Source: Spirogloea muscicola (Eukaryota). From it: a stretch of 64,000 nt of DNA. Every line of letters starts with the position of its first letter. The stretch's first letter is position 1. Below are positions 4,531 to 61,989 of this stretch, piece by piece. The translations under genes were made by a program, and so were the position numbers. The stretch lies in the NCBI GenBank assembly GCA_009602725.1, contig WELB01000022.1:18288-82287 (forward strand). Direction: 5' to 3'. The notes under the pieces are model-generated. The model was not told the origin of the DNA. It made no database searches and saw nothing but the letters and a program-made list of their open reading frames with translations.

Positions 4531-4764
4531 GGAAGAAAGTGCTCGCCCATGGAGAATAGGGGCTGGAGCAACCAGCCCGAAAAAGAATGAACAGAGTACG
4601 AGAAGGGGGCCAGGGGAAGCGCTGAGTAACAGAAACAGAGCTGCTACGAGGCACTCAGTAACCCCTGCTAAGCAGCCGCAGATCAGAGATGCTGGGCTCC
4701 TGGAAGTGGGTCCCCTGGCCAGAGCCAGAGGCAGCAGCGAGGGCTCTGCCGGCACGAAGGCGCA
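4531..4764 (-). mobile_element. 3' end of non-LTR retroelement (family A: ...SDLRLLSRGY* plus 3' UTR with hairpin)
   Basis: Minus-strand peptide RLRAGRALAAASG...SDLRLLSRGY*, followed by a UTR nearly identical to 36810-36911 and 57270-57400. Ends at the N at 4765. Confidence 0.85.
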
Positions 4765-4765
4765 N

Positions 4766-7700
4766 GCGCCCCCGCTTCGCACCCGCATCCCCCACGCTGC
4801 CGCCGCCGCCGCCGCCAGCCCAGCCGGCAATGGCTCCGCCGTCGCCGCCTCCACGCCCGCCACGCCCGCGCCAGCCTCGCCCCTCCTGCCCGCTGCTGGC
4901 CTCTCCGCTCCCCTCCCGCACGACGGCTGGGCCTCCGGCGGGGAGACCTCCTCGGACTCCGACGCCGATGGCAGCAGCACGGCAGCCCCGGCCATCGACA
5001 TCAGCCAGCTGGACACCATGGAGGAGAGCGCCATGGTGCAGGAGGCCTGGCGCCTCCTCCGCGAGTCCGTCATTACCTACTGCGGCCAGCCGGTGACGCC
5101 CTTCTCCGCTCGCCTCATGCACGGCCCCTGGCCTGCAGTGCTGGTGACACCACCTGCCGCACACGACCACGTGCCACTCGAACATCCGCCTAGCACGGTC
5201 ATAGCTGAGTATCTTATGCACCCGCCCCGGAACTCATGGGCCAGGTGGGCACGTTGGCAGCCTGTGACCCCAACGACGAGGACCTCGTGAACTACGACCA
5301 GGTCTTCATCCGGGACTTTGTGCCTTCCGGGATTGCCTTCCTCCTGGCAGGGGAGTCGGAGATCGTCCGCAATTTCCTCCTCCACACATTGCAGCTGCAG
5401 GTGACTCACGCGGCCCACCACCTGCTCTATCCTAGCCGTTGAGCACTACTGACAGAATCCCCGGACAGCTTTACTCGTTATCGTCAATCTGGTCCTTCTG
5501 GATTCTTTCCAGCTCTGTGTTGATGACTCGGCCAAACCCTCTCGCCGCCCCGTTTGGCTGGTGTCAGTCCTGGGAGAAAACCTTAGACTGCTACACGCCT
5601 GGTGAGGGCCTGATGCCGGCGAGCTTCAAGGTGACCACTGTGCCCCTTGAGGACGGACCTCCGGGAGCAACAGAAGAGATTCTGTACCCGGACTTTGGCG
5701 AGTCTGCTATAGGGCGAGTTGCTCCGGTCGACTCAGGTCCTGGGCAGGCAGCCACACTCCAAGATCTTTGCTAGATTCCCTCCTGCTGCTGATACCAACG
5801 TGCTGCACAAGGAAGGCTTCTTTTGTCATCACGTACAATGAGCATGCTTCCCTACTCATACATGCCTTCGGATCTTGGTGTAGTGTAGCCTGCTTGCAAG
5901 GGTTTATAGAGGACATGTTTTGCCTTGACATCAGGAGTCATTTCACTGAATGTAGGCTTGTGGTGGATATTCTTACTGCGGGCATATGGAAAGGCAACCG
6001 GAGATTTGTCACTGCAAGGGCGTGTGGATGTCCAGACTGGAATCAAGCTCATTCTGAAAGTATGCCTGGCTGATGGCTTTGACATGTTCCCCACATTGCT
6101 GGTCACCGATGGCTCATGTATGATTGATCGTCGAATGGGTATCCATGGTCATCCTCTTGAAATTCAGGTGAGCATGGCAATGCCGATTTTGTCTCAATAC
6201 ACATCCCTCGCTGCATTGCTACTGTAAGGCAGGCCAACAAGCCACTTGGAAGACTGGCAGATCGGATTGGACAACAACCTGTCCTTCATGGGCTGGGCTT
6301 GCATTTCAGCTGTTGGCCCTTTCATCATTGTTTCCAGCTATCTTGATCCACGACGCTCTCTGCAAGATGGATCTCAGTTCTTCTCACATTGCTGCGGCCA
6401 GATGGGACAGGGACAGGCACTCTGCTTATATCAGCACTCTGAGACCAATGCGTAAATGTTGCTGATCTGTGATACTTTGGACCTGGCAGGCTCTCTTCTA
6501 TTCGGCACTGCGATGTGCAAGAGAAATGCTGATTCCTGATCAAGCAGGTCTTGAGCTCATCCGCAATGTGACTGCTCGCCTTACGGCCCTGTCCTTTCAT
6601 GTTCGAGAATATTACTGGATTGATCTTCGTAAATTAAACGAGATCTATCGCTACAAGACCGAGGAATATTCAGAGGAAGCCATCAACAAACTTAATATCT
6701 ACCCGGAACAAGTGAGTTCTTACCCAGCATCTCCGTGAAAAATCCTCGGACCAGGTCAAATTAGGCTTGGAACTGATCACTGGTGTCATTAGTATTGCTG
6801 GTGGGTACTTATATATGGAAATGCCTGTGTCATGGCTGGCTCTGCTTTCCCTTTCTTACTTGACTAATGAGCTGTATAGGTTTCACCTTGGCTCGTGGAT
6901 TGGATGCCAGAAAAAGGTGGCTACTTGGTGGGCAACGTGCAGGTCGGAGCACCTGCCCTTAGTAAACACCTTAAACAACCTGAACAGTGATTGGGGATGC
7001 ATCTTAGCCAAATTGTCCTGCCTGTCGTGTACCAGCGGTCGGTCCAATCTGAGATGTTGATCTGAACAGTGCATCTGACTTGAGCAGACTGGATTTGGAG
7101 CAAGGGAGAGTGACCCAGAGCAGTTCTTGACACTTGGATCTCTTCTCTATCTGGCTTGCAGCCTGCCCACATGGACTTTCGGTTCTTCATGTTGGGAAAT
7201 CTGTGGTCCATCATGAGTTGCCTAGCAAGCGAGAAACAAAGTGCTGCAATTCTGGACTTGATTGAGGCCCGCTGGACTGACTTGATCGGAGCGATGCCGC
7301 TGAAAATATGTTTCCCTGCACTCAATCACCACGAATGGCGAATCATCACTGGGGCAGATCCAAAAAACACGTATTGGTTTCCCCTCACTGAGGACCTACT
7401 ATCAGCTGCCACCTTTTAAAGCTCCAGTGACACTTCATGATTGTGTATGACATGCAGCTGAATGTGGGAGGGTTGACTGCTCTAGTTGATTAGCAGCAGT
7501 GCTGAAGACAATCGCCGTCCTGTCATGTGTCAACCCTGACTACACCCATGGCATTGTTGCACAATCCTTGATGGGTGATTCCTTTGTTGTACCTATGTAT
7601 TCTGATGCAGGGAGTGGAGCTATCACAATGGTGGGTCTTGGCCTGTGCTACTCTGGCAGGTTGGTCTTATTATCGCTCATGGCTGTTCCCACCGGCTGTG

Positions 7701-9261: not shown

Positions 9262-9760
9262 AGCGAAGATGGGCTCGCCCAGAGAGAATAGGGGCTGGAA
9301 AAGAATGAACAGAGTACGAGGAGGGGCCAGGGGAAGCACCAAGGAGAACAAGCACAAGAAGAAACGAAGCAGCTACGAAGCACTCGGTAACCCCTGCTAA
9401 GCAGCCTCCGATCAGGAGAGGAGGGCTCGCCCATTGAGGATAGGGGCTGGAAAGGAATGAACAGAGTACGAGAAGGGGCCAGGGGAAGCACCAAGGGAAA
9501 CAAGCACAAGAAGGAACTGAGCAGCTACGAAGCACGCAGTAACCCCTGTCAAGCAGCCTCCGATCAGAAGAGAAGGGCTCGCCCATTGAGGATAGGGGCT
9601 GGAAAAGCCAGCCCAAAGTAGGACGAACAAAGGACGAGAAGGGCGCCAGGGGAAGCGCTAAGAGAAGGCAAGCACAGGAGGAAATAGAGGAGGAGTGGCT
9701 GAGCAAAGCAGCTACGAAGCACGGAGTGACCCCTGCCAAGCAGCCTCACGTCAGAGAAGG
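9262..9760 (-). repeat. Three head-to-tail ~150-190 bp copies of the family A retroelement 3' end
   Basis: Repeated unit (minus strand): CTGATCGGAGGCTGCT..AGGGGTTAC..GTAGCTGC..CCCCTGGCCCCT..CCAGCCCCTATCCTCAATGGGCGAGCCC, with unit boundaries near 9415 and 9566. Confidence 0.9.
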
Positions 9761-9929
9761 CGGGTCCGCTGGCCACAGCCGGAGGCGAGCGGGGCCGGGG
9801 CAGCGTGGCCCCGGGCCGGCGGAGCAAAGAAGCGCCGTGCGTCGTGTGTTGGGAGCAAGCCGAGTGTGCATAGGCAAGCGCATCGCAGCGGGCTGCCCCG
9901 CTCGCCGGCGCGGCTCCCGGCGGGCCGCC

Positions 9930-13300: not shown

Positions 13301-13989
13301 GCCAAGATAAAATGTCCCATGCATGCGTTGCAATCTCATCATCCCATCTTGCTGAGTATCGAGTGAGTCTAGCTTTGCTTTGGGTTCATGGTTCTTCATG
13401 GTCTTAGTTAATGTCAGCGCACTTCAACATGATCACTTTGCACTGTGCACTGTGCAAGTGTCCCATTCAGGTACAAGCAAGTGCACATTGCAACATGCAA
13501 CAGCCTAGCTCCTGTTCACGTACTCCGTTTGTCAATATATGACGCCACCTGAAGGAGACATAGTCCTAGTGACTGTGCATCGTAGGTGCACCAAAAGTTC
13601 AACAAGACAAGCTAAGATGACAATTACTCAAAGTCCAAGAAAGATACGAGAGCAAGACCTTGAGTCAACCTTGAGGCCAAGAAATTGCTATCGGTCACAA
13701 TCAGCGACCAGGTTCTTGCATTACTGGATCCTTGACTGCGAGCTGCAATATAATTTTACCTGGCCTCGTCAAATACATTGTGCGATGTCCCTAGCAAGAT
13801 ACAGTGTCCTCCTCAAGTAGTATGGCCCTGGAACATTTGCTGTGAGGAACACTGGTGATTGAAAGAGATGTATCGTGAATAAATAGCTACACACATAGAG
13901 CAGGTAAGCAGAGCAGGTAAGCAGAGAGTAAGAGAGACTATGTACATCTTGCCCTGGGACAAGGCCACGCAGGTGGCTAACAGCAAAGG

Positions 13990-16289: not shown

Positions 16290-16565
16290 CAGGGAGAAAG
16301 AAGAAGAAGGGCTCGCCCATTGAGAATATGGGCTGGAACAGCCAGCCCAAAAAAGAATGAACAGAGTTCAAGAAGAGGGGGGGGGAAGCCAGGCGAAGCC
16401 CTAAGGCGAAGCAGCAGAAGTGACAAGCACACAAGAAAAAACAAAGCAGCTACTAACCACTCAGTGACCCCTGCTACGCAGGCGCAGGTCGGAGAGGCTA
16501 TGCTCCTGGAAGTATGTCCCCGCGCCAGGGCCCCTATCCTCAATGGGCGAGCCCTTTCCTCTCGC
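16290..16565 (-). mobile_element. Family A retroelement 3' fragment immediately upstream of the MOSC ATG
   Basis: Same UTR and hairpin, GGGCTGGCTGTTCCAGCCCATATTCTCAATGGGCGAGCCCTTCTTCTTC. An extra inverted piece lies at 16530-16560. Confidence 0.8.
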
Positions 16566-16599
16566 GGGCTGCAGCTCTGTGAGCCAAGGACGCTTCCAT

Positions 16600-17135
16600 G
16601 AGAAAATGCGTGTATATTAAGAGATGGGGAGGCCATGTGTGGCCAAGTACAAAGGCAAGCACATTGGACAAATGTACGTCACCTGCTGCTAAGCTGACCC
16701 GCTCAGTAACCACGAGTCAGCACATAGAGGTCGCTAGCTGACGCTCGAATACCGGACGGCAATTGACTAGCTCTTGTGCCAGCAGCTAAGGCTCGACCAG
16801 CTTTCTGATGCAGAGCATACGCCTGAGCTCGTTGCAGACAGGTTGACACTCGACGTCGCAGAAATGACAGATAGGCTGCCGGCATACCCATCTGGGCTGG
16901 GAGCATATCCTCGCGTCGTGCATATCCCAGACTCGCTATGTTCTCGAGTAGGGTATGGAAGCGAGGACCCAAGCAGCCGAAAGTGTCGATTGCGGCCGGG
17001 AGGAGGTGGTCACTGCGGGGGTAGTCTGAGTAATGTCGGAGCTTTTTCTGCTCAGCACCTCCCACTGCGTGGCCAGCAATGTGTGTGGAAGCGGAACTCT
17101 TGTATGCCTCAGTCACCACCACATCAACCAAAGCT
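16600..17135 (-). mobile_element. 5'-truncated non-LTR retrotransposon, family B: open RLE C-terminal ORF plus 3' UTR
   Basis: ORF 16703-17131: VDVVVT..AEQKKLRHY..AIDTFGCLGPRFHTLL..RRRVSTCLQRAQAYALHQKAGRAL..SDLYVLTRGY*. The D-V..E..K..Y / G..G / R.S..LQR.QA pattern is typical of the restriction-like endonuclease end of CRE-type elements. UTR ends ..AATATACACG. Confidence 0.8.
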
Positions 17136-17190
17136 CGTGGGCCTCCGCCAGGTTAGAGGGCGGTGGCTGTGATTGGCCAGCCCGGAAAAA

Positions 17191-17774
17191 GAGAAAGCGG
17201 CTGCTGATATGAAAGAATCGGCTGTGAAATGCCAGCCAGATGCATACAGGTGTTCATGACGGAGCCGAAGGCTAGGCAGACAGGGCGCCATCAATACCCC
17301 CGTGTCAGCAGTAGGAAGTCAGATGAGCTGAGGGGAGGAAGAGCAACCCCGCTGCGCAAGCCAGAGGCTGCTGCAAGGGCATGGAGAAGAGAGAATGAGC
17401 AAGGTGAACAGGGGACTGCTCGAGTCGCTGTGTGCTGTGGATTTCACTTGTTTCATGCCTTGTCCCGCCCGTTCTCTGGGCTGGTGGCTCGGTGCCTTTG
17501 GGTCTCGTGTCCTGCTACCGTATGCGATTGTCTATGTCCCTGCAGCGCTCCCAAGCGCTTGCTTTGCACCGCCGCGCTGGTCGCGCCCTTGCAGCAGCCT
17601 CTGGCTTGCGCAGCGGGGTTGCTCTTCCTCCCCTCAGCTCATCTGACTTCCTACTGCTGACACGGGGGTATTGATGGCGCCCTGTCTGCCTAGCCTTTGG
17701 CTCCGTCATGAACACCTGTATGCATCTGGCTGGCATTTCACAGCCGATTCTTTCATATCAGCAGCCGCTTTCTC
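17191..17774. repeat. 190-bp near-perfect inverted repeat formed by two family C retroelement 3' ends
   Basis: 17191-17380 is the reverse complement of 17585-17774 (1 mismatch seen). Both encode ..ALAAASGLRSG..SDFLLLTRGY*. Confidence 0.95.
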
Positions 17775-17939: not shown

Positions 17940-18700
17940 TGAGAAAGTAGTCTCCAAGTAACGAGTCTCCTGCCGCCCTCTTCTGGAAGATACCGCGGAT
18001 CCTGTCCATGGCCAGAGGCTGCAGCCAAAGTGCGAGCGGCACGCAGATGCAACGCGTGTGCCATAGACAGCTGCAGCGATGCTGACGCGCATGCGATACA
18101 CCTGGGCGAGGAAGCCTGCCGCGCTGACAGAGGCCTGCTTCCCTTGACGACGGGACACAGCGCTGCAAGCTAGCCGGTGCAAGAGCTCAAGCCACAGAGC
18201 GCCGAATGCCCCGTGGACGTTGATGGCAAAGAACTGGAGTGATGGAGGGCCTGAGTGGCCAAGTACAGAGGCAAGCAATTGACATGACAGATGTACATCA
18301 CCTGCTGCTAAGCTGACCAACTCAATCAGCACGAGCAGCACGTAGAGGTCGCAAATTGATGCCCGAATACCAGACGGCAACTGACAAGCCCTTGTGCCAC
18401 CAGCTGAAGCTCGAACAGCTTCCTGGTGTAACGCATGAGCCTGAATGCGCTGCAAACAGGCTGACAAACAACGTCGCAAAAACCACAAATAGGCTGCTGG
18501 CATGCCCATCTCGGCTGGAAGCATATTCTCACGACGTGCATATCCTAGACTTGAGATGTTCTCAAGTAGGATATGAACCTCGTGGACCCATGCAGCCGAA
18601 GATGTCAATTGCGGCTGGTGGGAGGTGAGCGCTACGGGGGTAGTCACGTTAGAGCTGCAGCTTTCTCTGAACTGCACTTCCCACTACGTGTCCAGCAATG
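17940..18700 (-). mobile_element. Two further decayed RLE-retroelement C-terminal copies (family A/C-like and family B)
   Basis: FFAINVHGAFGALWLELLHRLA..QVYRMRVSIA (17940-18240) and LLENISSLGYARRENMLPAEMGMPAAYL..LPSGIRASICDLYVL (18320-18690). Confidence 0.8.
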
Positions 18701-32104: not shown

Positions 32105-32130
32105 NCCTCCCTTCCTCCCTCCGGGTTAGC

Positions 32131-32331
32131 ACCAGAAAGCTGGGCGAGCTCTAGTAGGTGGCAGAAGGGCTCCGTTCCTGGCATCTAGTATTCATGCATC
32201 GAGTAGTGACCTTTATGTTTTGACCCGTGGTTATTGAGCGGGTCAATCTGCCTGCTGTAGGTTATGTAGATTTTTAGATGTGCTTGCCTTTGTACCTGGC
32301 CATTTGGCCTACATTTCTTTCTAATACACGA
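32131..32331 (+). mobile_element. 5'-truncated family B retroelement insertion with 23-bp target-site duplication
   Basis: Encodes the decayed end QKAGRALVGGR..SDLYVLTRGY* plus UTR ending TAATACACGA. Flanked by TCCCT(T/C)CCTCCCTCCGGGTTAGC at 32108-32130 and 32332-32354. Confidence 0.9.
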
Positions 32332-32564
32332 TCCCTCCCTCCCTCCGGGTTAGCGAGGTTGCTACTACACATGGCCCTCCCCTTAGTTACTGATACGCTG
32401 TTTCAGGTGCCCACCTTGCAGTAGGGCAGCTTCTTGCACCACTTAGAGGGTTGAATGCATAACAAATTCCCGCCCCCCCCACCCCTCTCCGCCGGCGCCG
32501 TCATCTCCGTCACCTCGCCGGCAGCCGAGAGCCACCACCACCCCTCCCCGGCCGTCGTGTGTCG

Positions 32565-32855
32565 GCCTGTTTGCAGCGTGCTCGGGCTCATGCTTTGCAC
32601 CCAGAGAACTTTTCGTGTATTTGAAACAAACGAAGGCCAAATGGCCAAGTATACAAGAGAGCTGGGTGAGGTCTAGTTGGTGGCAGAAGGGCTTGAATCT
32701 GCCGTCCGATTGTCAGGCATCGATCAGCGACCTCCATTTGCCGACTTGTGGCTACTGAGCGGGTCACTTGCAGTGATTAATGTATGTTACCAGATGTGCT
32801 TGCCTTCTTACTTGGCCACTTCGGCCTTCCGATGTTCCAATACAAGCAAGTCCCT
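32565..32855. mobile_element. Nested family B fragments in both orientations
   Basis: Plus-strand CLQRARAHAL piece, then a minus-strand 3' UTR (32610-32655), then a plus-strand RAG..PSGI..RGY plus UTR. Confidence 0.7.
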
Positions 32856-33522: not shown

Positions 33523-35243
33523 TCAGTAGTAGCCAAGCGACCTCACGCGCTCCTGAATCAATTGCCGCTCCCATGGGGCGACATCGGTGAAAGCATAGTC
33601 AGGGAGCTCTTCCAGTGGCTGCTTTGAGTTGTCAAATTTGGCAAAGTCATAGGTGGCTCCCCTAATAGCTTCCTTCTTGGGCCCACACGGCCTCTTGGAT
33701 GTGAGAGTGTGATAAGCTGTCCCCATCTGTTACCAATCCACATTCACAAACAAAACAGTGCGGAATGCCACAGTCAGACCTTGACTGATGGTAGTTGGGC
33801 AACCAAGAGGCCAAGAACAAGAGGTCCGCCATTTTCTGCTGAATCACTCATGCAAGGCAGCAAGCTCGGATGTTGGCTGCAGTACTCACATCCATGTCTT
33901 GGAACCAAAAGAGGTATGCAATCGCCACTGCAGGAGCACGACCCAAGCCTGCTGTGCAATGAATGTATACTTTCTCTCCCTTGCTGACATGGTGATCCAC
34001 AACACCTACTGCACCTGGAAGCTCGTGCCTCAGAGAATGAGGGTCAAAGTCCTTTGCCTGCCAAGATCAAGGCTGTTGATAATCAGAAACTCTTGAGATC
34101 TTGAGAAGGGAAGCACACAGGATCGCGTCCACAGTGAAGGAGGTGAAAGGGGAGGCTCATGGCAGGTCACTCGCATGGCGGCCTGCCCTGTGCAGCTGTG
34201 TCCATGGCAGCATCACCATATAGATGGGCAGAACACTTACCGGCCTGCGTACGTGGCGGATACCCAGCTCCTCACACTTGCGAAGAATGGCATTGAAATC
34301 AGTGCCCCAGTATGCTATGTCCTTGTCTTGTTGCAGGTTGAGGATGACCTTCACCCCCTCTCTGTGCAGCTGCTCAATATCCTCAATATTCTGAGGCTGA
34401 GAGCCGACGATGATGTTGTTGGTGATAGGCGTATAGTACATGCCTGTAATTAGCATAAAAGCACAAGCCAGATCAGGTTCAGGCCACATTACTGCTAAGC
34501 TCCTTATGGCCTCATGCAGGGATACATGTCACAGTATGCCTGGTAACCCCTCACCTAGAGACTACCTGACAACAGACAAGCTGTGGCATGCCAGGAGCTA
34601 CCACAGCTGCAAACTCTCCTACGTTTGGCTTGCTTGACAACTCTCTGCGGTATATGCGATGACACCATGTGTCGCAGCATGCCACAAGCTGCATTGGCTG
34701 CTTGAAAGCCCGCAAGTCGAGCTTTCTCGTCGTCCAAAGATGTGGCTCACCATGTGCTACTGCTGCTCTTAGATCACACTCAGACTTGACATCACATCGT
34801 GCAGGGACTGTGCTTGGTTGGTCAAGGCTACACAAGGATCTGGACGGGTTCGCACGCTGCAGGCAGCGATCAGACGTGCGGCGCGGCTCACCCAGCTCGT
34901 GGTGGTACTCGTACGGGTTGGCCATCTGGCGCTTCATGGCGTCGTTGTACTGGTCCACCCTGGAAGAGGCCTGCTGCTGGTGCCCCTGCGGTGGCGCGGC
35001 TATGGCCATGGCGGGTAGCCGGCGAGGCGCAGGCGCTTCGAGGCGCCTCGGCAGGCACGGGAGGGCGCCGCCGCGCCGGGCTGCCAGGGCCCATGCGGCT
35101 GAGGCCGCCGGCCGGGGCGAGGCCTCGGCAGGTCGAGACCGGAAGGAGGCGGCGGCGGCGGCGGCGGAGGCGGAGGAGGCGGCGGCGGAGGAGGAGGTGG
35201 TGGCAGCGGCGGCGGCGGCGGCGGGTCCTTCTGGACGACGCAC
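33523..35243 (-). CDS. LSF2: Phosphoglucan phosphatase LIKE SEX FOUR 2; start codon uncertain (first in-frame ATG 35009)
   Basis: YNDAMKRQMANPYEYHHELG|MYYTPITNNIIVGSQPQ..ILNLQQDKD, DFDPHSLR, VYIHCTAGLGRAPAVAIAYLFW (CX5R motif), LTSKRPCGPKKEAIRGATYDFAK..WERQLIQERVRSL*. Confidence 0.93.
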
Positions 35244-35855
35244 ACGCCGCCGTCGGCGCCACCATCGCAGAGCAACGGCGGCTCAGGGCGCGCCGCGTCC
35301 GCGCCCTGGTGGGAGGATGACAAGGACGGGCACTACGTCTACCAGCTGGGCGAGAACCTCACACCGAGATGTGAGCGAGCCTTTCCGTTCGCCGTCTCTG
35401 TCACAGCTGCGTCCCTCTGGCGGCTGTCTGTCGCTCCATCTGTGTGACGTGCGAGCCAGAGGTCACGACAACACAGCTTGGCCACGGCACTGTGCACGAT
35501 GACGAGGCCGGTTGCTCTGCGTGTTTGCGTGTGTGCAGACAAGATACTGAGCAAGATGGGCGAAGGTAAGGCGCTGCACTACACTGGCAGCTCAACTCAG
35601 GGGCTGCACAGCTGGACGTGCAGCATCACACACTGCGCCTACGGACCACCATTGCTTCAGCTCCATGAGTGCGCCTGGCGAGCCAATAAGGTTGCCGGTC
35701 GTGAGGTGTGCTGGCCGCTCATGGCTACTCTTCTGCGGCGGGGCTGCGACCGGGCGAGCAGGGACGTTCGGCCGCGTGGTGGAGTGCTGGGACCGCAAGG
35801 CACAGGAGTACGTGGCCATCAAGGTCATCCGGAACGTGCAGAAGTATCGCGATGC
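35230..35855 (+). pseudogene. AFC: AFC/CLK (LAMMER) protein kinase, 5' three exons only, broken at N 35856
   Basis: SAPWWEDDKDGHYVYQLGENLTPRY|KILSKMGE|GTFGRVVECWDRKAQEYVAIKVIRNVQKYRD, with GT-AG introns. No downstream kinase exons in the window. No in-frame ATG after the TGA near 35100. Confidence 0.8.
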
Positions 35856-35856
35856 N

Positions 35857-36185
35857 TCCACCAGGATGCTGTGCATCGCGTCCCGGAGGCGGTCGTGGGC
35901 CGCCGTCCTCTCGCCGCCATGGGAACAGCGCAGGACGTGAGCAGCCAGCTCGCCAGGCTTGGCCCCTCGCTCGCCACACTGGCATTGACGCACGCCCTGG
36001 AGGCATGGAGGCGGCAGCCCCAGGAGCCGGTGGACGGCAGTGCGAAACACCTCATCTGGGAGGGTCAGGGCGTCAGTGATGGGGAGTGCCTGGAGCCACG
36101 CCGCTGCCACGCCGCTCCTCTTGCCTTGGTACTTGGCCACACGGGCCCTCTCTCCATACACTCCCCGTTCCTTCCTCCTCCGGCC
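35857..36185 (-). mobile_element. Retroelement fragment with CCHC zinc knuckle preceding the RLE domain
   Basis: AAAWLQALP..LPDEVFRTAVHRLLGLP..CQCG..HVLRCSHGGERTAAHDRLRD: the AWL..P / C-x-C..H...C / (R)HD signature of RLE non-LTR elements. Confidence 0.85.
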
Positions 36186-37225
36186 TCCTCTCACAGCCCT
36201 TGCCCCCATTGTTTGCAGCGTGCTCAGGCTAATGCCTTGCCCCAGAAAGCTGGACGAGCTGTAGTTGGTGGTAGAAAGGGCTTCGTATCTGACATCTAGT
36301 ATTCATGCATCGACTAGCGACCTTTATGTTCTGACCCGTGGTTACTGAGCGGGTCAATCTGCTGTAGGTTATGTAGATCTTCAGATGTGCTTGCCTTCGT
36401 ACTCGGCCATTCGGCCTACGTTTGTTTCGAACACACGTAATTTTTCGTGGCCCCTTCTCGTCCTTTGTTCATTCTTCTTTGGGCTGGCTTTTTCCAGCCC
36501 CTATCCTCAGTGGTAGAGTATGTAGGTCTTTAGATGTGCTTGCCTTTATCCTCAATGGCCCTCCTTTCTTTCTTTCAATGGGCGAGCCCCTTCTTTGAAG
36601 CGCTCGCCCATAGAGAAGAGTGGCTGGCAAAGCCAGCCCCAAAAGAATGGACATTATCCCAAGCCAAAGAAAGAGGTGCAAGAGGTTCTTTCCCATTGTC
36701 CATCGAGGAAGAAGTGGCACTCCCAATGGGGGCAAGGGCTGCGAAAAGCCAGCCCATAAAGAGTTCACAAAGGTTCAGAGGGGCCTTAGAGCGGTGAGCA
36801 GCTACAAAGAAGAAGAAAGTGCTCGCCCATTGAGAATAGGGGCTGGAACAACCAGCCCGAAAAAGAATGAACAGAGTACGAGAAGGGGGCCAGGGGAAGC
36901 GCTAAGTAACAAGCTACAAAGGGGCCTGAGGATGCTATGGTAAAACAGGGGGAGGATGGATCACTCAGTATGTTCGAGTGAGGAGCCTCAGATCCGACAG
37001 ACTAGCTGCCGGGAAGCTATCACCCTGACGAAAGCCAGAGCCCGCAGCGAGAGCACGGCCAGCTCGCAGATGCAGAGCGTGGGCCATGGACCGCTGCAGG
37101 GATACAGAGAGGCGCATCCGATATACCTGAGCCCACGAGCCCGCGGCGTTGAAGTCGGCTGGCTCGCCGCGTCTGCGGGACAGCCCGACGCGCAAGCCTA
37201 GCCAACAGGCCAACAGGTCCATCCA
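36186..37225. mobile_element. Nest of family A and B 3' ends and hairpin units in both orientations
   Basis: Family B end (+) at 36210-36440. Hairpin units at 36481, 36622, 36737 and 36840. Family A ORF end (-) at 36965-37222: YRMRLSVSLQRSMAHALHLRAGRAL..SDLRLLTRTY*. Confidence 0.85.
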
Positions 37226-37713
37226 GTACCAGCAACCACTTCCACTGAAGCAGAACTTAGAAGACGACTAGAAAATGGTGGTAGTAACAAAAACTCTGAT
37301 ATTGTTCAATGGAGGAAATGCCGTTTCTGGGCTTCCTATTATGATGGGAACAAACAAATTACCCAACCCACCAATCATTCTATTATGGCTGGCTTTTCAC
37401 AGCCCTTGCCAGCATTTGGGAGTGCCACTTCTCTACTATGATAGGAACAAACAAATTACCCAACCCACCGATCATAGAGGCCATAAACACTAGGAAAACA
37501 TCAAATAAGCGTGAGGTGTCATTAACAACATTGTACAACTGATTACACCGCCCAAGATCTGATTTCCGGGTTTGTGCCAATGCCATGCGAATGGAATGAG
37601 ATGAGCATGTACCCATGACTCCCGCAATAGCACCAAAATTAATATACAAGGTACCTGTCCTTGTGGCTAGTAGAGAAGAGCTTCCTCTGTGCAATATTAT
37701 TATTTGGAGGCAT
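37215..37713 (-). pseudogene. cox1: NUMT: 5' part of mitochondrial cox1, frameshifted and interrupted
   Basis: Decayed [86 protein letters not shown]-rich. Confidence 0.9.
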
Positions 37714-37949
37714 GTGTTACTAATCTTCAGCAATGCAATCCTATGTTGAGCTAGTTTAGTTGATGTTTACGTGATTTTGAGAAACAAAATTGATTACACT
37801 CACTGTCCCGAAGAAGGCCATCGTTTTCGAAAATCAGCTAACATGTTGTCTTTAAGGACAAGCAAAGCCTGAGGATTCTTTCCACTTTGTTGTGAGATTT
37901 GCCCAAGTACTGTTTGTCTTACATCTTGGCCCACTAAATTGAAATATTA

Positions 37950-38600
37950 GTCAACAAAAATTCTCCTATCATTTGTGTGCTAGTACACAATTTATCACTT
38001 CGCAAATGGTGTGAGCAATCAATTCCGAGATTATAGATTTTTGAGAGCTCATAGATCGTTGTAAGTCAGACAGCATGGAAGACTTTCTTGCTTTAAAAGT
38101 AGCTTTAACTGTATCTCCAAAAGCTCTCACTCTTAAAAAGCAAACCCAAGAAACTTAGAGCAACGATATACTATTCTTCATTGGATGGAGAGTTTTGCTT
38201 AGAAGTCAAAATACACAAAAGTATATGGAGAATAGAAGGACTTCACGCATTTCTATGATTAATTCAGAGAAAACTGAAGAACGAATGTTCACCATTTGAG
38301 CAATCATTAGGTTTCCCAGGCGATTGTAAATTGCAAAATAGCAGCTAGGAATACACAAGGACCACATCTGCTATATTAAGGTAAAAAGGGAAGAAGCTAC
38401 ATATTAAACAAAGACAAAGTCATGTAGGTACGCATAAGATGAGAGCAAGATGAGTCTGGTGAGATATTTGTGGAAAGGTATCATTAACCAAGAGAGAATA
38501 GACTTCTATCAATAATATCAGTCAATGCATATTGGATGATCGAGATGCATGAATGAGCAATACGCAAATCTTGAGATATAATTTGAGAAACGAAGTCCAT
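37950..38600 (-). pseudogene. tatC: NUMT: decayed tatC/mttB-like sequence
   Basis: Minus-strand TYMTLSL.. and LI*QMWSLCIPSCY resemble the mitochondrial TatC motif YQIWCFLIPSCY. AT-rich and flanked by other mitochondrial pieces. Limits approximate. Confidence 0.5.
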
Positions 38601-38759
38601 CTTCAGTTCTATGGTTGCATTCTTAGCTCAGATGGAAAGAGCCACAATTTTGTAGATTGAAGGCCACAGGTCAACTCCTGTAGAATGCGTAAAAGCGAAG
38701 AATTAGGAGGCTGTCTCGACCCTCCACGAAGGCCCTCATCAAGCCTCGACGAAGGCAGA

Positions 38760-38843
38760 GGGAGAGTGGCCTGAGTGGTTAAAAGCGGCAAAATGAGACT
38801 CTGTCAATATGTTTCTACGTAGGTTCGAATCCTGCCTTTCCTG
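38760..38843 (+). tRNA. trnY: Degenerate mitochondrial-type tRNA-Tyr pseudogene
   Basis: GGGAGAGTGGCCTGAGTGGTTAAAAGCG..CTACGTAGGTTCGAATCCTGCCTTTCC matches the plant mitochondrial trnY pattern; anticodon mutated. Confidence 0.75.
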
Positions 38844-39276
38844 AAAGGGTGGTAGACCTTTTGTACAATTGACAGTTACTACAGCTATAGTACCACAAAT
38901 TAGAAGAGTATTCTTCAGAGTAGCTTGTTTCGATATACAACACCGCATTACCAAAGAAAGGTATAGTTTTAGAGCTACGAGAACAAGTAATGGGTATCTC
39001 CAGCGACTTTACATTTCAAAGTCGTAGTACAGTTTTGGAACAAGAAGAACAAGATCTAAGTTATCTTGTTACTTCAGTAGCAAGAAACCCAACATTGGCT
39101 AAGCAATAAATTGGATAAGCTAATGGTTTGCTTTGACTGAAGCAATTGCTCTGATGATTTTTAATTTATTTATCTATACTTATTTTTATCTCGGGCACAT
39201 GTTGAATGTTTTCACGCCAAGTGTTCGAGGAGTCTCCAATTATCTTCGACGACTTCTCCAATGCAATGCCCAGTAA

Positions 39277-39350
39277 GGGCTAATAGCATGTTTGATTCAA
39301 AACGCACCGTTCATAACGGTGACATTATAGGTTTGAGCCCTACGTCCTAC
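39277..39350 (+). tRNA. trnI: Degenerate mitochondrial-type tRNA-Ile(CAU) pseudogene
   Basis: GGGCTAATAG..AAACGCACCGTTCATAACGGTGACATTATAGGTTTGAGCCCTAC; intact anticodon arm with CAT. Confidence 0.7.
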
Positions 39351-39360
39351 TGTTACGAAC

Positions 39361-39440
39361 GGGTATATGTTCAGTTAGCAAAGCATTGGGCTTCTGATCT
39401 CATCATCAGTTGTCGCAGGCTCCAAGCCCTGCTACACTCA
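39361..39440 (+). tRNA. trnK: Degenerate mitochondrial-type tRNA-Lys pseudogene
   Basis: GGGTATATGTTCAGTTAGCAAAGCATTGGGCTT..GTCGCAGGCTCCAAGCCCTGCTACACTCA. Confidence 0.6.
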
Positions 39441-39441
39441 G

Positions 39442-39521
39442 GCGGGTATGATGGAACTGGTAACATGCTAGGTTCAGGTTCTCGTGATATTTTCATGGGG
39501 GTTCGAGACCCTCTACCTGTA
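39442..39521 (+). tRNA. trnL: Degenerate mitochondrial-type tRNA-Leu(UAG) pseudogene
   Basis: GCGGGTATGATGGAACTGGTAACATGCTAGGTTCAGGTTCT..GGGGGTTCGAGACCCTCTACCTGTA. Confidence 0.65.
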
Positions 39522-39523
39522 TC

Positions 39524-39570
39524 CGGATGGATGTCTGAGTGGTTGAAGGTATCAGTCTTGAGTATTGAAT
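39524..39570 (+). tRNA. trnS: 5' half of mitochondrial-type tRNA-Ser(UGA), cut off by a hairpin unit
   Basis: GGATGGATGTCTGAGTGGTTGAAGGTATCAGTCTTGA.., followed directly by the reverse hairpin unit at ~39572-39610. Confidence 0.6.
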
Positions 39571-40400
39571 CAGAGGGCGGAGACTGTGATAGGCCAGCCC
39601 AGAGAAGAATGAACCCAAGAGGAATGGACTAGGCCCCCTTATGGCTGCTATTGCTCCCTTTTTTTCTGGGATTGGAAGCTTAAACATCTGTTTGGTTTTC
39701 TCCTGGGCTGGCCAATCACCGCCATCACCGCACAAAATCTTCCGCCGACGCCCTCTACTAGTACAGTCGTACTCTCTGATGGACTAGTGCCGAAGGAGGA
39801 AGATTCGTGTATTTGAGACAAACGAAGGCCAAATGGCCAAGTACAAAGGCAAGCACATCTAAGATCTATATAACCTACAGCAGAATGACCCGCTCAGTAA
39901 CCGCAGGTCAAAACATAAAGAAGGGGGTCTAAAGCCACAGCCTTACACTGGTACAGCTGCTCCTTGTATGCGCAGTGTGTTCGCTTCGATTGGCCTCCCT
40001 TTCTTCCCATGCGCACCACATGCCTTTCTCTCTTTACGATCCTTTGGCAATTGGCACTTTCCGGCCCATTCTTCTCCGGCTGGCTTTTCACAGCCTCGCC
40101 CCGTGTGGATGTTTCGTTTCCGCCTTCATCAGACCTTGTACAGTCTTTCATGGCTGGCTTTCAATTGTCTCGCCCCATTGGAAGAGCTTGGATTCTTATA
40201 GCCGCTACTGCTGTCTCAACCCAGCCCACTTTGCTGTGGCGGAGCAGAGCTCTCCCTAAGGAGAGAAGGCGCAGGGTGTGATGAAGTGAAGGGAGGCCAA
40301 GCTGAGTCGGTAAGCTGTTAATGGACAACTTTCAAAGGATGGGGCTACTCAAAGCGAAGCCCAAGAAGGAGACAATGGTTGTGAAGGCCAGCCCGGTGAG
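39571..40400. mobile_element. Cluster of hairpin units and a family B 3' end
   Basis: Hairpins at ~39583(-), 39704(+), 40078(+) and 40380(-). Family B end LYVLTCGY* plus UTR (-) at 39800-39925. Confidence 0.75.
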
Positions 40401-50159: not shown

Positions 50160-50639
50160 CTTGGAAGTCTTGGGGCAGTTGCACGCCTCCGAGCATTGTA
50201 GGGGCCAGGCCGTGCCCGGGGCTAGCCCTGCGCTGTGCATGTGGTTGTGAGGGCAGGGTGTGGCAATTGTGCCTCAACATGAGTAGCGTCAACTGCCACT
50301 TCTCAACGCACTATGGCAGCGTCAGGTGCCATTGTGGGGACGAGTCAGCCTGCGCTCGAGCAGATTTGATGTGCTGCATTAGTTGGCAGCCTTTGGAAAC
50401 CCTTTTGAATACCTGTCAAGTCACTGCGAGCTTTGCTGTTGGGAAGGGGGACTGGCTGGTGTCGAGGGGGGCAAATTGGCGGAGAGGGGGTTGAGTTTCG
50501 CCATGACAACTGTGCGGCTGCAGGTTACTCTGACTTGCGGCTGCTGAGTACAGGTTGATACTTCTCTTGAGCACCCACTTGTAGCAGCCACTTACGTAGC
50601 TGTGTGATTCTCGCTTTCGAGCCCCTTAGGACCTTGTCT

Positions 50640-51430
50640 TGTACTTACTTACGGGCTGGCCAATCACAGCCATCGCCCCCTTGTGTGCAAGAATACTCCC
50701 GATAAAGTGCCTGGACGGGGTCCGAACGAGCTGCTGAAGCCTTCTCCTGCGTGCTATCCGCTTTCCATCTTTTGAGGGCCTTGTCCAAGCTACTTATCCT
50801 TAAGCTTCTCGGTCACAATCATCGCCTTGCTTTGGAGGAGCTCTGTCTCTTAGGCTGGCCTCTTACAGCCATCGCCTTGCATCACAAGAGCTGTTTCGCC
50901 AGACGAGATGTAGCTCATCACAGTGAGGCGAAGGCTGCAGAGGGCCAGCCCCCAGAACAAGCAGCTGTAGCTCTTCCATGGCCTGTTCGTTACCTTTGGG
51001 CTGGCCTCTCACAGCCATCTCCTTACTTCTGGAGTTGCTGTGTCCTTTTGGGCTGACCAATCACAGCCATCGCCCTACTGAAAGAATCCCTCACACTTTT
51101 GGGCTGGCCTTTCGCAGCCATCGCCTGACACTGGTGAGGCTGATTTCTTTCCCCATTTGAGTCGCCGTGTGCGAAAACACCTCTTCAGATCGAAGGCCAA
51201 GGGCTGCGAAGGAAAGGAGAGGGCCAACAAGAGAGCTACTCTTTCCTTTGTCCTTTGAGCTGGCCTTTTCCCAGCCACTACCCTTGAATTGGAAGAGCTT
51301 CCTCGTTTACTCCTCTATTTCCAGTAGAAGAAGCTCGCCCAGTAGAAGAAGGTGGCTGGGGGAAAAAGGTACAGCTCCTCCAGATTGACAGAGCGGCTGT
51401 GAGAGGCCAGCCCAAAGAAATGGACAAGGT
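50640..51430. repeat. Array of ~51-bp hairpin units with conserved head and variable tail
   Basis: GGGCTGGC....CACAGCCATCGCC at 50653, (50802 degenerate), 50852, 50998, 51050, 51101 and 51257; reverse copies at ~50933 and 51395. Confidence 0.85.
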
Positions 51431-51494
51431 CTGAGAGGGCCGGAAGGCGCAGAAAAGCAGGATACTAGTCTCTAAGACGTCAGCAAGTCGGCTC

Positions 51495-51800
51495 TCAGTA
51501 ACCTCTAGTCAGTGATTGCAAGTCTGAATGACTAGAGGGCGGAAAAAGCGTCGCTCTGACAAAGCCGGATGCAGCAGCCAAGGCACGCGGCAAAGGCTGC
51601 AGGGACGGTTGCCCTCTGAACCTTTGTGAATTCTTTTTGGGCTGGCTTTTCGCAGCCCTTGCCCCCATTGGGAGTGCCACTTCTTCTTCTTGTTGCCAGG
51701 TGCATCCTGAACACAATAGACTGGACAAGGTCCAAGTAGAAGAAAGTCCAAGTAGTAGAGGGCCTCTGTTTTCTTGGCAATGGCTGTGAGGGCCAACCAG
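51495..51800. mobile_element. Retroelement ORF end (-) plus family-type hairpin units
   Basis: RALAAASG..SDLQSLTRGY* (51495-51600). 51615-51690 is nearly the exact reverse complement of 36708-36782. Confidence 0.8.
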
Positions 51801-52059
51801 CCCGGCGAGAGTGACGCAGAAAGTGGCTGTACCAAGAGGAGGGCCGTGAGCAGCCAGCCCGACAAGAGTGGGCAGAGTCCGAGAGTGACGAGGTGACGAG
51901 GGACGAGGGAGGGGGCCCAGGCGGCGAGGGCCCCGAGCGGCGGGCTGGGGTGGCCGTGAAGACGGGCCCGGGCCATCTTGGGAGCCAGAAGTCCGCAGAG
52001 CCAGTTCGCGCGCCCCACCCCTGCCCCCTCCGCCCGCGCCGCCCGCCATGACCCCGCCN

Positions 52060-52297: not shown

Positions 52298-52329
52298 CGC
52301 CTGGCCCCAAGCCCCCAGCCCCGAGCCCC

Positions 52330-52354
52330 AAACCCTAACCCTAGCCCTGAGCCC
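52330..52354 (+). promoter_or_regulatory. Telobox / degenerate telomeric repeats
   Basis: AAACCCTAACCCTAGCCCTGAGCCC, 9-33 nt upstream of the TRB ATG. Confidence 0.65.
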
Positions 52355-56329: not shown

Positions 56330-57600
56330 GTGCCCTCCTCTTTTGCGGGCTGGCTTTCTACAGCCCTCGCCCCCCTTCTTGGAACGACCATGGCCTTACT
56401 TTTGACTTTTGAGGAGCTGTTCCATTCTTCGCCGCTCCACAGCCAGCTTGCTCGGGAGGAAGGAACACCTCCTCCAGCGGGAGAAGCAGGAACAGCTTTG
56501 CCACTCCCTCGGGCTGGCTTCTCACAGCCACCGCCTCACAGCTGTCACTGCCAGTGTGAGGCAGTGACTGGGGCACGCCAGTCCGGAGGGGAAACAGCAC
56601 TTCCAAAGTAAGGCATGGCTGTGTGAGAGGCATCTCATTGAAGAACGACTTCTCCAATAGAGGGCGATGTCTGCACTTGGCCAGCCCAGTCAGAGGAATG
56701 AACAGAGTCCGGAGGGGCCGGAAAAGCGCTGTAGAGAAGAAGGGCTCGCCCATTGAGGATAGGGGCTGGAAAAACCAGCCCAAAAAAGAATGAGAAGTAC
56801 GAGAAGGGAGCCAGAGGAAGCGCTAAGAAAACAAAGCACACAAAGAAAGCACGCGGTGGCTCGAGTGGCCACCGGGTGCTCAATGCCCCCTGCTGAGCAG
56901 CCGCAGGTCAGAGGAACCATGTGCAAGGAGAAGAAGGAAGGGCTCGCCCATTGAGGATATGGGCTGGAACACCCAGCCCAAATAAAGAATGAGCAGGAGG
57001 AGAAGGCCTCTTCCCGCAGAGGCGCCATCCGGCCCCTCCCGACCTTGTACATACTTTTGGGCTGGCCTCACAGCCACCTGTGTATCCGGAAGCGCTGTTG
57101 CTCGATGGCTGGCAGAGGCCAGCCCAAGCAGGAGAGGAAGGCAGACTCGTCCAGGAGAGGGGGGCGGGTGCTGAGCTTCCCTAGTATGTTGTCGTGTTTG
57201 GTAGCGTAGTCCTCTTTCTTTGGCTTTGGACATTGTCCATTGATTTTGGGCTGGCTTTGCAGGGGCTACTGAGTGTCTCGTAGCAGCTTTGTTCCTGTTA
57301 CTTAGCGCTTCCCCTGGCCCCCTTCTCGTACTCTGTTCATTCTTTTTCGGGCTGGTTGTTCCAGGCCCTATTCTCAATGGGCGAGCACTTTCTTCTTTCT
57401 TCTTTGCAAGCCCCTCTTCTCGATGGGCGCGCACTTTCTTCTGTGAGCGGGCAGCCCGGAAGCCCGGAAAAAGGGGCCGAGCAAAAGGTCGGAAGGGGCC
57501 CGGAAAAGCGCAAAAGCGCACAGCCACGCGAGCGGCCAACGGGATCCCCCTGTTGAGCAGCCGCGGGTCAGCGAGGAGGAGGAGAAGCAGGGCCCGGGTG
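56330..57600. mobile_element. Nest of hairpin units and family A 3' ends in both orientations
   Basis: Hairpins at 56347, 56510, 56667, 56763, 56961, 57059, 57107, 57248 and 57348; SSDLRLLSRGH* at ~56880-56915(-). Confidence 0.85.
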
Positions 57601-61243: not shown

Positions 61244-61989
61244 CGCGCATGCAGCCACTGCAGAGAGTGGAGAGTTGGGGGGCCCGCTCCTCTCCCTGAC
61301 TCTGGCTGCAGGCTTCATGCCAATCCTAGATGCACTTCAATGTAGTGCGCATACCCTTGCTTGAGGACTCCCCTACCAGCTCCGGCAGTACTGGTACTTC
61401 TGGTGCACAGAAGATGCTGTAATTGCAGATTTAATTGCTGTAAAGTGCTCCATTGTCGATGCTGAAGCTCGGCACGCTGAATCTCTCAGGAGCTCGATTG
61501 CGCCCTGCTTAGCCTTGCGCAGTCGCATGCCCGACCATCGCCACGTGGTCTGCTCAATCACGGCCGAGCATTACAGCTACGAGGCAGATGCACGAGCCGC
61601 ATACTCCATGAGGGCCCGTCCGCTTTCGTGGTTATCTAGAAGACCAGCCTCTCTCCTCAGGATTGATCCGTTGCACCTGGGGGCACTGTTGTCCAGGCTG
61701 TGCTGGCTCGCATCACCCATGCAGGTGCTTGGGCACGGCCAGTGTGACCACCGTCGTAGGACAACAAGCCAGGGCTGTTGACGGAATAGAGGCGTGGCAG
61801 GGCTTCCACACAGAGCGGCGGCTGTTGTGCAGCGAAGCCCGCTGTCCAAGGCCCCGCAGCGGGTGGTTCTCAAGAGTCTGTGCTGTGCTGTACTTGAAGG
61901 ACAGGCCCCGTCAGACCATCAGACCGCCCGGCTGCTTCCTCCCGTCCGGCTTGCCTGCACGGAAGGCATAACGCAGGGGAAGGAGCTCA

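Follow-up and report, generated by a model that had tools for sequence, protein, structure and literature searches.

Units stacked in an intergenic island of Spirogloea muscicola (GenBank assembly GCA_009602725.1, contig WELB01000022.1) are almost certainly the 3' ends of LINE retrotransposons that encode a restriction-like endonuclease (RLE). They very probably consist of the last ~50 nt, i.e. a hairpin (the head) and a tail, of several related reverse transcriptase (RT)/RLE non-LTR families, and were likely stacked by repeated target-primed insertion of heavily 5'-truncated copies into earlier ones. Positions refer to the window, the whole stretch of 64,000 nt that was analysed. The island (50529-51885) contained the following features:

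50529..50558, strand +: last ORF codons, SDLRLLSTG* (translation, and profile hit 50515-50580, E 0.002)
50559..50700, strand +: 3' UTR of the copy ending at 50558, with pyrimidine tract, head 50653 and diverged tail
50802..50899, strand +: pair of 3'-end units with a period of 50, one with the degenerate head 50802 and the other with head 50852
50902..50957, strand -: 3'-end unit in inverse orientation (head 50951), its tail facing that of 50852
50998..51049, strand +: 3'-end unit, its tail related to the ORF-bearing copy with head 51413
51050..51100, strand +: 3'-end unit of another subfamily, nearest to solo copy 28413
51101..51150, strand +: 3'-end unit, nearest to 50998 and 50951
51246..51301, strand +: 3'-end unit with head 51257 and a tail of the common GGAAGAGC type (E 3.5e-6; for the tail, none of 500 shuffles as good)
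51361..51587, strand -: 5'-truncated copy with ORF end RALAAASG...SDLQSLTRGY* (51587-51495), 81 nt from stop to head (51413), and tail (tblastn E 1e-9 to P0124)
51611..51688, strand +: young 3' end, 96% identical to 36705-36782 (sharp terminus at 51687-51688, unrelated flanks, 62-71 contigs)
51776..51885, strand -: two degenerate inverted units, heads 51800 and 51860

A pattern scan with GGGCTGGCYWWTCACAGCCATCGCC retrieved the heads 50653, 50852, 50998, 51050 and 51101 with zero to three mismatches, and 100 shuffles gave no chance match. Hence, the heads that the preliminary description had claimed in 50640-51300 are genuine, and the spacings claimed for them were correct as well (50 nt for 50802/50852; 52 and 51 nt for 50998/51050/51101). 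Since contigs spanning 50524-51024 and 50997-51424 matched the window with no differences, the assembly is sound there. Only three plus two units were in register. Four inverted heads (50951, 51413, 51800, and 51860) and one further head (51639) occurred in the same island. Over the whole window and both strands, 16 heads had at most three mismatches, 10 of them outside 50640-51300. A profile for which 17 copies from beyond the island served as training set gave 43 head/3'-end matches in the window (E <= 0.01, training copies counted). Pattern scans of viral contigs gave no matches, and those of metagenomes gave none and then two loci with the same sequence around the match, which comprised only 19-32 matching bases and was taken as chance. 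No Rfam family matched the units, the island giving three weak hits (E 1.4-3.4), and folding of 50600-51900 returned a stable structure, which, in a run without shuffles, was left out as evidence. The heads were more conserved than the tails, as had been claimed, among the seven units (mean identity 0.76 versus 0.57) and among 39 window units (0.72 versus 0.54); these differences have to be read against the choice of the units by their heads and against a value of ~0.48 that unrelated flanks already give in gapped alignment.

The inverted arms described for the heads were largely retained, the GGCTG/CAGCC stem being unchanged in 28 of 37 heads. Head 50802 had lost its stem, and no compensatory pairs occurred among the 37 heads, so that the stem is without covariation support. 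The head is a stem-loop situated ~50 nt before the 3' end of non-LTR retrotransposons. Similarly, a sister family possessed a GGCC-loop-GGCC hairpin ~25 nt before its 3' end, of which the loop varied and the arms were constant. The start of the head, TTTGGGCT (window 50995-51003, and in other heads), contained TGGGCY, the plant site II promoter motif, which may be there by chance. By analogy with R2, which needs 3'-UTR stem-loops for the start of reverse transcription according to the accessible text of PMC13586686, the hairpin is likely a recognition signal for the RT; such a putative role would account for the greater conservation of the head than of the tail.

Self-comparison of the window revealed nine repeat islands, composed of related pieces sharing one end. 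Read in the direction of the heads, the far parts of these islands were coding, and the frame upstream of the heads, including that in the island described above, ended in SDLxxL[TS]RG[YH]*, the C-terminus of an RT plus RLE ORF. This motif occurred 11 times (15 rows, four of which were spurious). In seven copies outside the sister family, the head followed 52-112 nt after the stop, and an eighth such case was 50529-50558, with the stop 94 nt before head 50653. The other four ORF ends belonged to the sister family, with the GGCC hairpin at a similar distance from the end. The presence of an ORF end and a stop upstream of the heads indicates that the head is a 3'-UTR hairpin and the tail the element's last ~25 nt. 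Indeed, tblastn placed RLE C-termini, that at 51587-51495 among them, in seven of the nine islands, in line with the early suggestion that the units are 3' termini of RLE retrotransposons. Among the other copies in the window were the following:

4532..4759, strand -: copy truncated on its 5' side but retaining the ORF end, 76 nt from stop to head, situated upstream of invertase
16703..17152, strand -: fragment coding for the C-terminal RLE domain, 149 aa, of the sister family with its different 3' hairpin
17191..17381, strand -: truncated copy between another copy's pyrimidine tract and head 17183, spacing 55
17483..17774, strand +: same young family as 17191..17381, 99.5% identical over 190 bp, with more ORF
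32131..32331, strand +: 5'-truncated sister-family copy with a 23-bp direct repeat (22/23 identical), just before the ATG of callose synthase
35739..36107, strand -: portion of an ORF of this kind that codes for the CCHC zinc knuckle (tblastn to P0128, E 9e-34)
36812..37225, strand -: copy truncated on its 5' side, with the RLE C-terminus, 106 nt from its stop (36965) to the head, and a (CTT)n end
37379..37432, strand +: lone ~55-nt head-plus-tail fragment flanked by a 43-47-bp direct repeat of low-copy DNA
16596-16662, 18244-18278, 32280-32331, 32796-32855, 36117-36160, 36387-36450 and 39797-39856: GGCC-loop-GGCC hairpins of the sister family

The CCHC part at 35739-36107 was joined, on the opposite strand, to a kinase-like gene fragment (window 35200-36110), presumably of a LAMMER-type kinase gene. 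The copies 17191-17380 and 17585-17774 stood back to back, 204 bp apart, as either twin insertions or an inverted duplication. A reading of all islands as one collinear element of more than 1 kb was dropped, as the segments are separate RLE C-termini.

The window ORF at 16706-17152 (reverse strand) matched 11 eukaryotic gene models, of an id series labelled S. muscicola, with up to 98% identity, and the ORF ends of the window were 86-98% like gene models with RT motifs and CCHC/RLE. In P0126 and P0131, RT motifs are followed by a CCHC knuckle and then by the window's sequence; in P0128, RVT_1 was hit weakly (E 2.4e-4). Among the 82 hits obtained from 1.84 billion representatives was P0168, a single ORF of 1096 aa. 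This protein has a zinc finger in its N-terminal part, RVT_1 (E 6.6e-19), and a motif of the REL type, and the window ORF aligned to it over 135 residues at the C-terminal end (954-1088). In the Atlas, P0168 fell in unnamed RVT_1 clusters only, and P0126 had no match among PDB sequences. The predicted structure of the window ORF (pLDDT 81) gave nothing at E <= 0.001 in Foldseek. In a wide fold search, the C-terminal region of R2Tg (9dou_A) was the only match to the whole alpha/beta domain among the best 50 rows, a weak one (Z 4.9, hence below 8; rmsd 3.0 over 101 residues). The window harboured no full-length element or RT-coding stretch as judged by Pfam and tblastn, and the link with an RT is provided by homologous gene models and by distant relatives, the RT itself being absent from the window. 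Of the 399 stop-to-stop ORFs of at least 75 aa, 364 were scanned with Pfam, which is without a model catching this RLE end; they contained neither a transposon domain nor a Cas family, as expected from the initial remark that cas genes are absent. In the accessible part of PMC12857005, the REL motif of the CRE clade reads C-x1-3-C-x7-8-H-x3-4-C-x9-10-RHD/N...E...R/KPD...D/E. P0168 was among the three of 12 proteins that fitted a widened REL pattern, with a C-to-H gap of 10-13; the S. muscicola models, which are degenerate, did not fit. The elements probably belong to the CRE clade, an assignment based on layout and motif style. The gene models P0121-P0131, P0136, P0141 and P0175 were made of or fused to RLE C-termini, the fusion partners being formyltransferase/CSD, AAA, and AP2 genes. 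P0124 and P0128 contained chained ends of two or three families, and P0136 (nine matches) is a perfect repeat of one RLE piece, which was left out as evidence for stacking.

As a set, the seven tails of the island aligned better than all 1000 shuffles (z 7.5), with z 4.7 for the four tails quoted originally and z 22 for 39 window tails, falling to z 4 for the sequence further downstream. Taken singly, the tails were diverged, three of the seven reaching p < 0.05 against tails outside the island. Their common form was roughly YYCAWT-GG-RRGAGC-NCTTTCTTC, the weak tail motif noticed before. The idea of the tails as unique spacers does not hold; judged by these alignments, the tails are homologous 3' ends of related families and not spacers. 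No link was found between head similarity and tail similarity over 37 units (Mantel rho 0.05; 554 of 2000 permutations). Furthermore, contigs of other loci showed a head, then a similar tail, then another head, with head-to-head periods of 44, 48, 50, 53, 55, 60, 60, 77, 83, and 92 nt (at least 10 distinct joints, among the joints listed for run X1), indicating that ~51 nt is the short end of a continuum.

Contigs left the window sequence at 51687-51688, 36708 and 36810-36811 and entered unrelated DNA, the flank agreement past these termini being 0.35-0.38 (55-132 contigs per row), and an extra CTT was often present between the terminus and the unrelated flank. The joints linked a fixed terminus to many internal points (36744-37017), one of them changing strand; they often carried a few extra letters, and C/T microhomology was present. 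Contig ends and joints together display a precise 3' end, a simple tail, and variable 5' truncation. A single fixed target was not seen, the flanks being unrelated past the termini and the joints lying at many positions. The contigs matched, all runs representing one sample, numbered 10,509 and 7,930 on 1.7 kb, and 18,363 and 11,450 on 871 bp. The summed depth was 1e5-6e6 at the heads versus 60-330 in unique flanks, a measure that is not a copy number and shows only that the ends are very abundant. It dropped with distance from the terminus, as 5' truncation predicts; divergence of the reference copy could add to this drop. Window copies ranged from 55 to ~560 nt, and fragment lengths formed a continuum from ~40 to more than 300 nt, at odds with the discrete ~50-nt RNAs that had been proposed as units.

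Target duplications were of variable length (23 bp and 43-47 bp), only two being clear from 41 heads scanned plus the sister family. Direct repeats as high-scoring as the 23-bp and ~45-bp ones occurred in seven and one of 3000 random near pairs, respectively. The duplication at 37379-37432 was at unique-DNA depth, and the presence of this lone unit within a duplication indicates that single ~55-nt units do arise by insertion. No target duplication was distinguishable within the stack 50998-51150. One copy (17381-17191) ended directly before head 17183, and its 5' flank resembled the tract preceding the heads (none of 500 shuffles and 13 of 1000 random 60-mers being as good); the DNA 5' of 50998 was no closer to that tract than shuffles (141 of 300). 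Sequential addition by an RLE RT, as postulated at the outset, thus has a direct nesting example in 17381-17191 and lacks a resolvable duplication in the stack 50998-51150 itself.

The relationships among neighbouring units bear on the way in which they were assembled. The unit 51050 was closest to solo copy 28413, 22.6 kb off, its neighbours ranking 8th and 16th of 36 and their tails 21st and 34th of 36. The units 50998 and 51101 were mutually nearest, as were 50802 and 50852. The affinities of 51050 show that adjoining units stem from different relatives rather than from plain triplication. With 51050 nearest to 28413, and 50998 and 51101 nearest to each other, the arrangement fits an insertion into an older pair.

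Target-primed reverse transcription is established biology, and underlies the steps of nicking, priming, and truncation proposed here. The RLE would nick C/T-rich DNA resembling the element's own CTT tail, this tail would help priming, and reverse transcription would mostly stop early. The C/T tract just before each hairpin may serve as nick site, whereby copies would attract copies. A new copy in this tract would bring its tail ~50 nt before the old head and, if itself cut short at its own tract, would leave a ~51-nt unit; insertion in the pyrimidine tract just before a head would thus yield a spacing of ~50 nt. Nested insertion is somewhat favoured as the main builder of the stacks. Some units are 3'-cut or inverted, for which deletion or recombination is needed too, and the block similarities together with the recurrence of 50788-50951 indicate that blocks were copied as well, which argues against pure nesting.

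Alternatively, each stack may be the product of a single event of template jumping, which the preliminary description had brought up, with the RT moving on from one RNA template to the 3' end of another. Such end-to-end jumps via microhomology are known for the R2 RT (accessible text of PMC13586686). Template jumping would leave joints similar to those of nesting, and the fixed 3' ends joined to variable internal points, often with extra letters, as well as the C/T microhomology, suit it. It is rather unlikely, as the units of a stack differ in age and strand, the inner copy 17381-17191 has parts of a single host copy on both sides, and none of the eight whole islands tested was surrounded by a target duplication.

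Improbable, and more so than template jumping, is that the short period originated locally, through duplication or slippage involving the C/T tract before a head and the CTT tail, or from a tandem repeat within the 3' UTR of one master, followed by divergence. The mutually nearest pairs (50998/51101 and 50802/50852) are what it would produce. In addition, 50794-50876 is 72% like 50990-51074, 17237-17157 is 75% like 50999-51076, the whole segment 50788-50951 is present again at another locus, with 21 differences, and 9267-9607 is a true 152-bp tandem. The closer affinity of unit 51050 to a solo copy 22.6 kb off than to its neighbours speaks against duplication, as do the periods of 44-92 nt elsewhere and the failure of TRF (score 30) to find an array at 50640-51300. 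The 152-bp tandem itself comprises an ORF end and UTR, and two units have the same deletion within the hairpin.

That the units are the ends of a DNA transposon (MITE, Mutator, Helitron, or Replitron) or of a Penelope-like element is very improbable. A DNA transposon would fit the 190-bp inverted pair (99.5% identity) and the position upstream of genes, and partial tandems and inverted truncated copies are typical of Chlamys/Naiad according to the accessible text of PMC8557442. The inverted pair holds an RLE ORF end, however, with one arm extending further into the ORF; the coding part is of the RT/RLE type and not GIY-YIG, DDE, or HUH; the duplications are long and unequal; and six longer motifs were absent from the available supplement text of PMC8557442. 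A TIR transposon or MITE was rejected, as the 190-bp inverted pair is without flanking duplication and contains an ORF end. The Replitron (PMC10288648, in its accessible part), Helitron, and Mutator readings were dropped, as the segments are RLE C-termini, and so was the Penelope-like one (Chlamys/Naiad; accessible parts of PMC8557442 and PMC9977147), as the ends are RLE-type and linked to LINE RVT_1.

Of negligible probability is the CRISPR-like reading in the preliminary description, taken as a record with a constant repeat, acquired spacers, and ~50-nt guide RNAs against past elements. Heads more conserved than tails and three units in 51-52 register would suit it, and, as in a CRISPR array, each short palindromic unit is followed by sequence that varies more. 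Nothing in the DNA analysed pointed to a role as record or as source of small RNAs, however: the tails are homologous, fragment lengths are continuous, the register extends to three units at most, the heads are dispersed in mixed orientation on both strands, the unit is a retrotransposon 3' UTR, and no Rfam family matches.

Zepp, which reportedly forms self-nested clusters of truncated LINE copies in an alga, had been put forward as precedent. ZeppL is an L1-clade LINE of centromeres according to the accessible text of PMC9977147, whereas the element described here encodes an RLE, for which Cnl1 of Cryptococcus is the closer precedent. Cnl1 shows tandem self-insertion and is mostly 5'-truncated (PMC9942834, available text), and it groups with MoTeR1, SLACS, CRE1/2, and CZAR (PMC12857005, available text). 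Its nested arrays are the closest known system, set beside the present stacks by layout: both concern an RT/RLE non-LTR element with mostly 5'-truncated copies in nested arrays formed by self-insertion. The Cnl1 arrays are subtelomeric, of one family, and with full-length copies, whereas several families, 55-75% alike, occur here in short intergenic islands, on both strands, and as fragments of 40-500 nt. CRE elements, as described in the accessible text of PMC12278014, combine RT, RLE, and zinc fingers in one ORF, end in a poly(A) tail, and insert at a fixed target with duplications of variable size. The single ZnF-RT-RLE ORF (in the relative P0168) and the variable duplications are shared with the CRE clade (CRE1/2, SLACS, CZAR), whereas the elements described here showed no fixed target gene, end in CTT runs (AATACACG-like tails in the sister family) instead of poly(A), and occur dispersed and in very large numbers. 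Target specificity is the rule among RLE clades, though less marked in HERO, and the 3' ends of Utopia are sometimes followed by other Utopia copies (PMC4640811, available text). With R2 and Utopia, the elements share the C-terminal RLE fold (the weak match to 9dou_A), precise 3' and variable 5' ends, and a structured 3' UTR. R2 and Utopia target rDNA or U2 genes, in contrast with the ends examined here, beside which no such target was found. No description of these elements was found in the literature searched, which excluded Repbase, Dfam, subscription papers, and the genome paper; the accessible parts of PMC10088271 and PMC9915684 contained nothing on them.

Retrotransposon pieces covered ~11.5% of the window. 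With gene spans being approximate, 42 of the 43 end hits lay outside gene bodies, which fill ~75% of the window, and one inside. Stacks occurred directly upstream of invertase, Pol eta-like, MOSC, callose synthase, Myb/TRB-like, and C2H2 genes, some at most ~40 bp from the ATG:

4532-4770, 9266-9790, 16290-16560, 32108-32354, 51611-51885 and 56330-57445: gene-upstream stacks (small numbers, approximate gene spans)

None were found in two convergent gaps (~13310-13700 and ~61245-61900). The invertase is 86-87% like land-plant enzymes. The region 37500-39560 was an AT-rich, organelle-like insert with three tRNA hits (38617-38689, 38760-38843, and 39442-39521; Rfam, gathering level); a further tRNA-like start at ~39520 ended at a retrotransposon fragment. 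In addition, a telomere-like CCCTAA/GCCCCAA run (52304-52348) stood just before the ATG of the Myb/TRB-like gene.

The feature is genuine and its cause commonplace: the stacked 3' ends of RLE LINEs very probably add a further case to a familiar class of selfish DNA and do not constitute an immune record, which removes the false lead of a eukaryotic CRISPR-like array. They point to a group of RLE LINEs that is abundant and seems to lack a single fixed target, in an alga closely related to land plants, with a conserved hairpin as candidate RT-binding signal. Gene models (P0121-P0131, P0141, and P0175) are contaminated by their fragments, a point to be borne in mind when gene families are counted in this genome. 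Of interest are, furthermore, how abundant the ends are, that different families are stacked together, and that the stacks lie immediately before genes. In this respect, it is a tentative thought, with the chances rather against it, that several long-diverged RLE LINE families of this alga share the 3'-UTR hairpin and use the adjoining C/T tract as a mutual landing site, and that the gene-upstream stacks, ordered and made up of several families, record successive waves of activity and may now form promoters or 5' UTRs of many genes.
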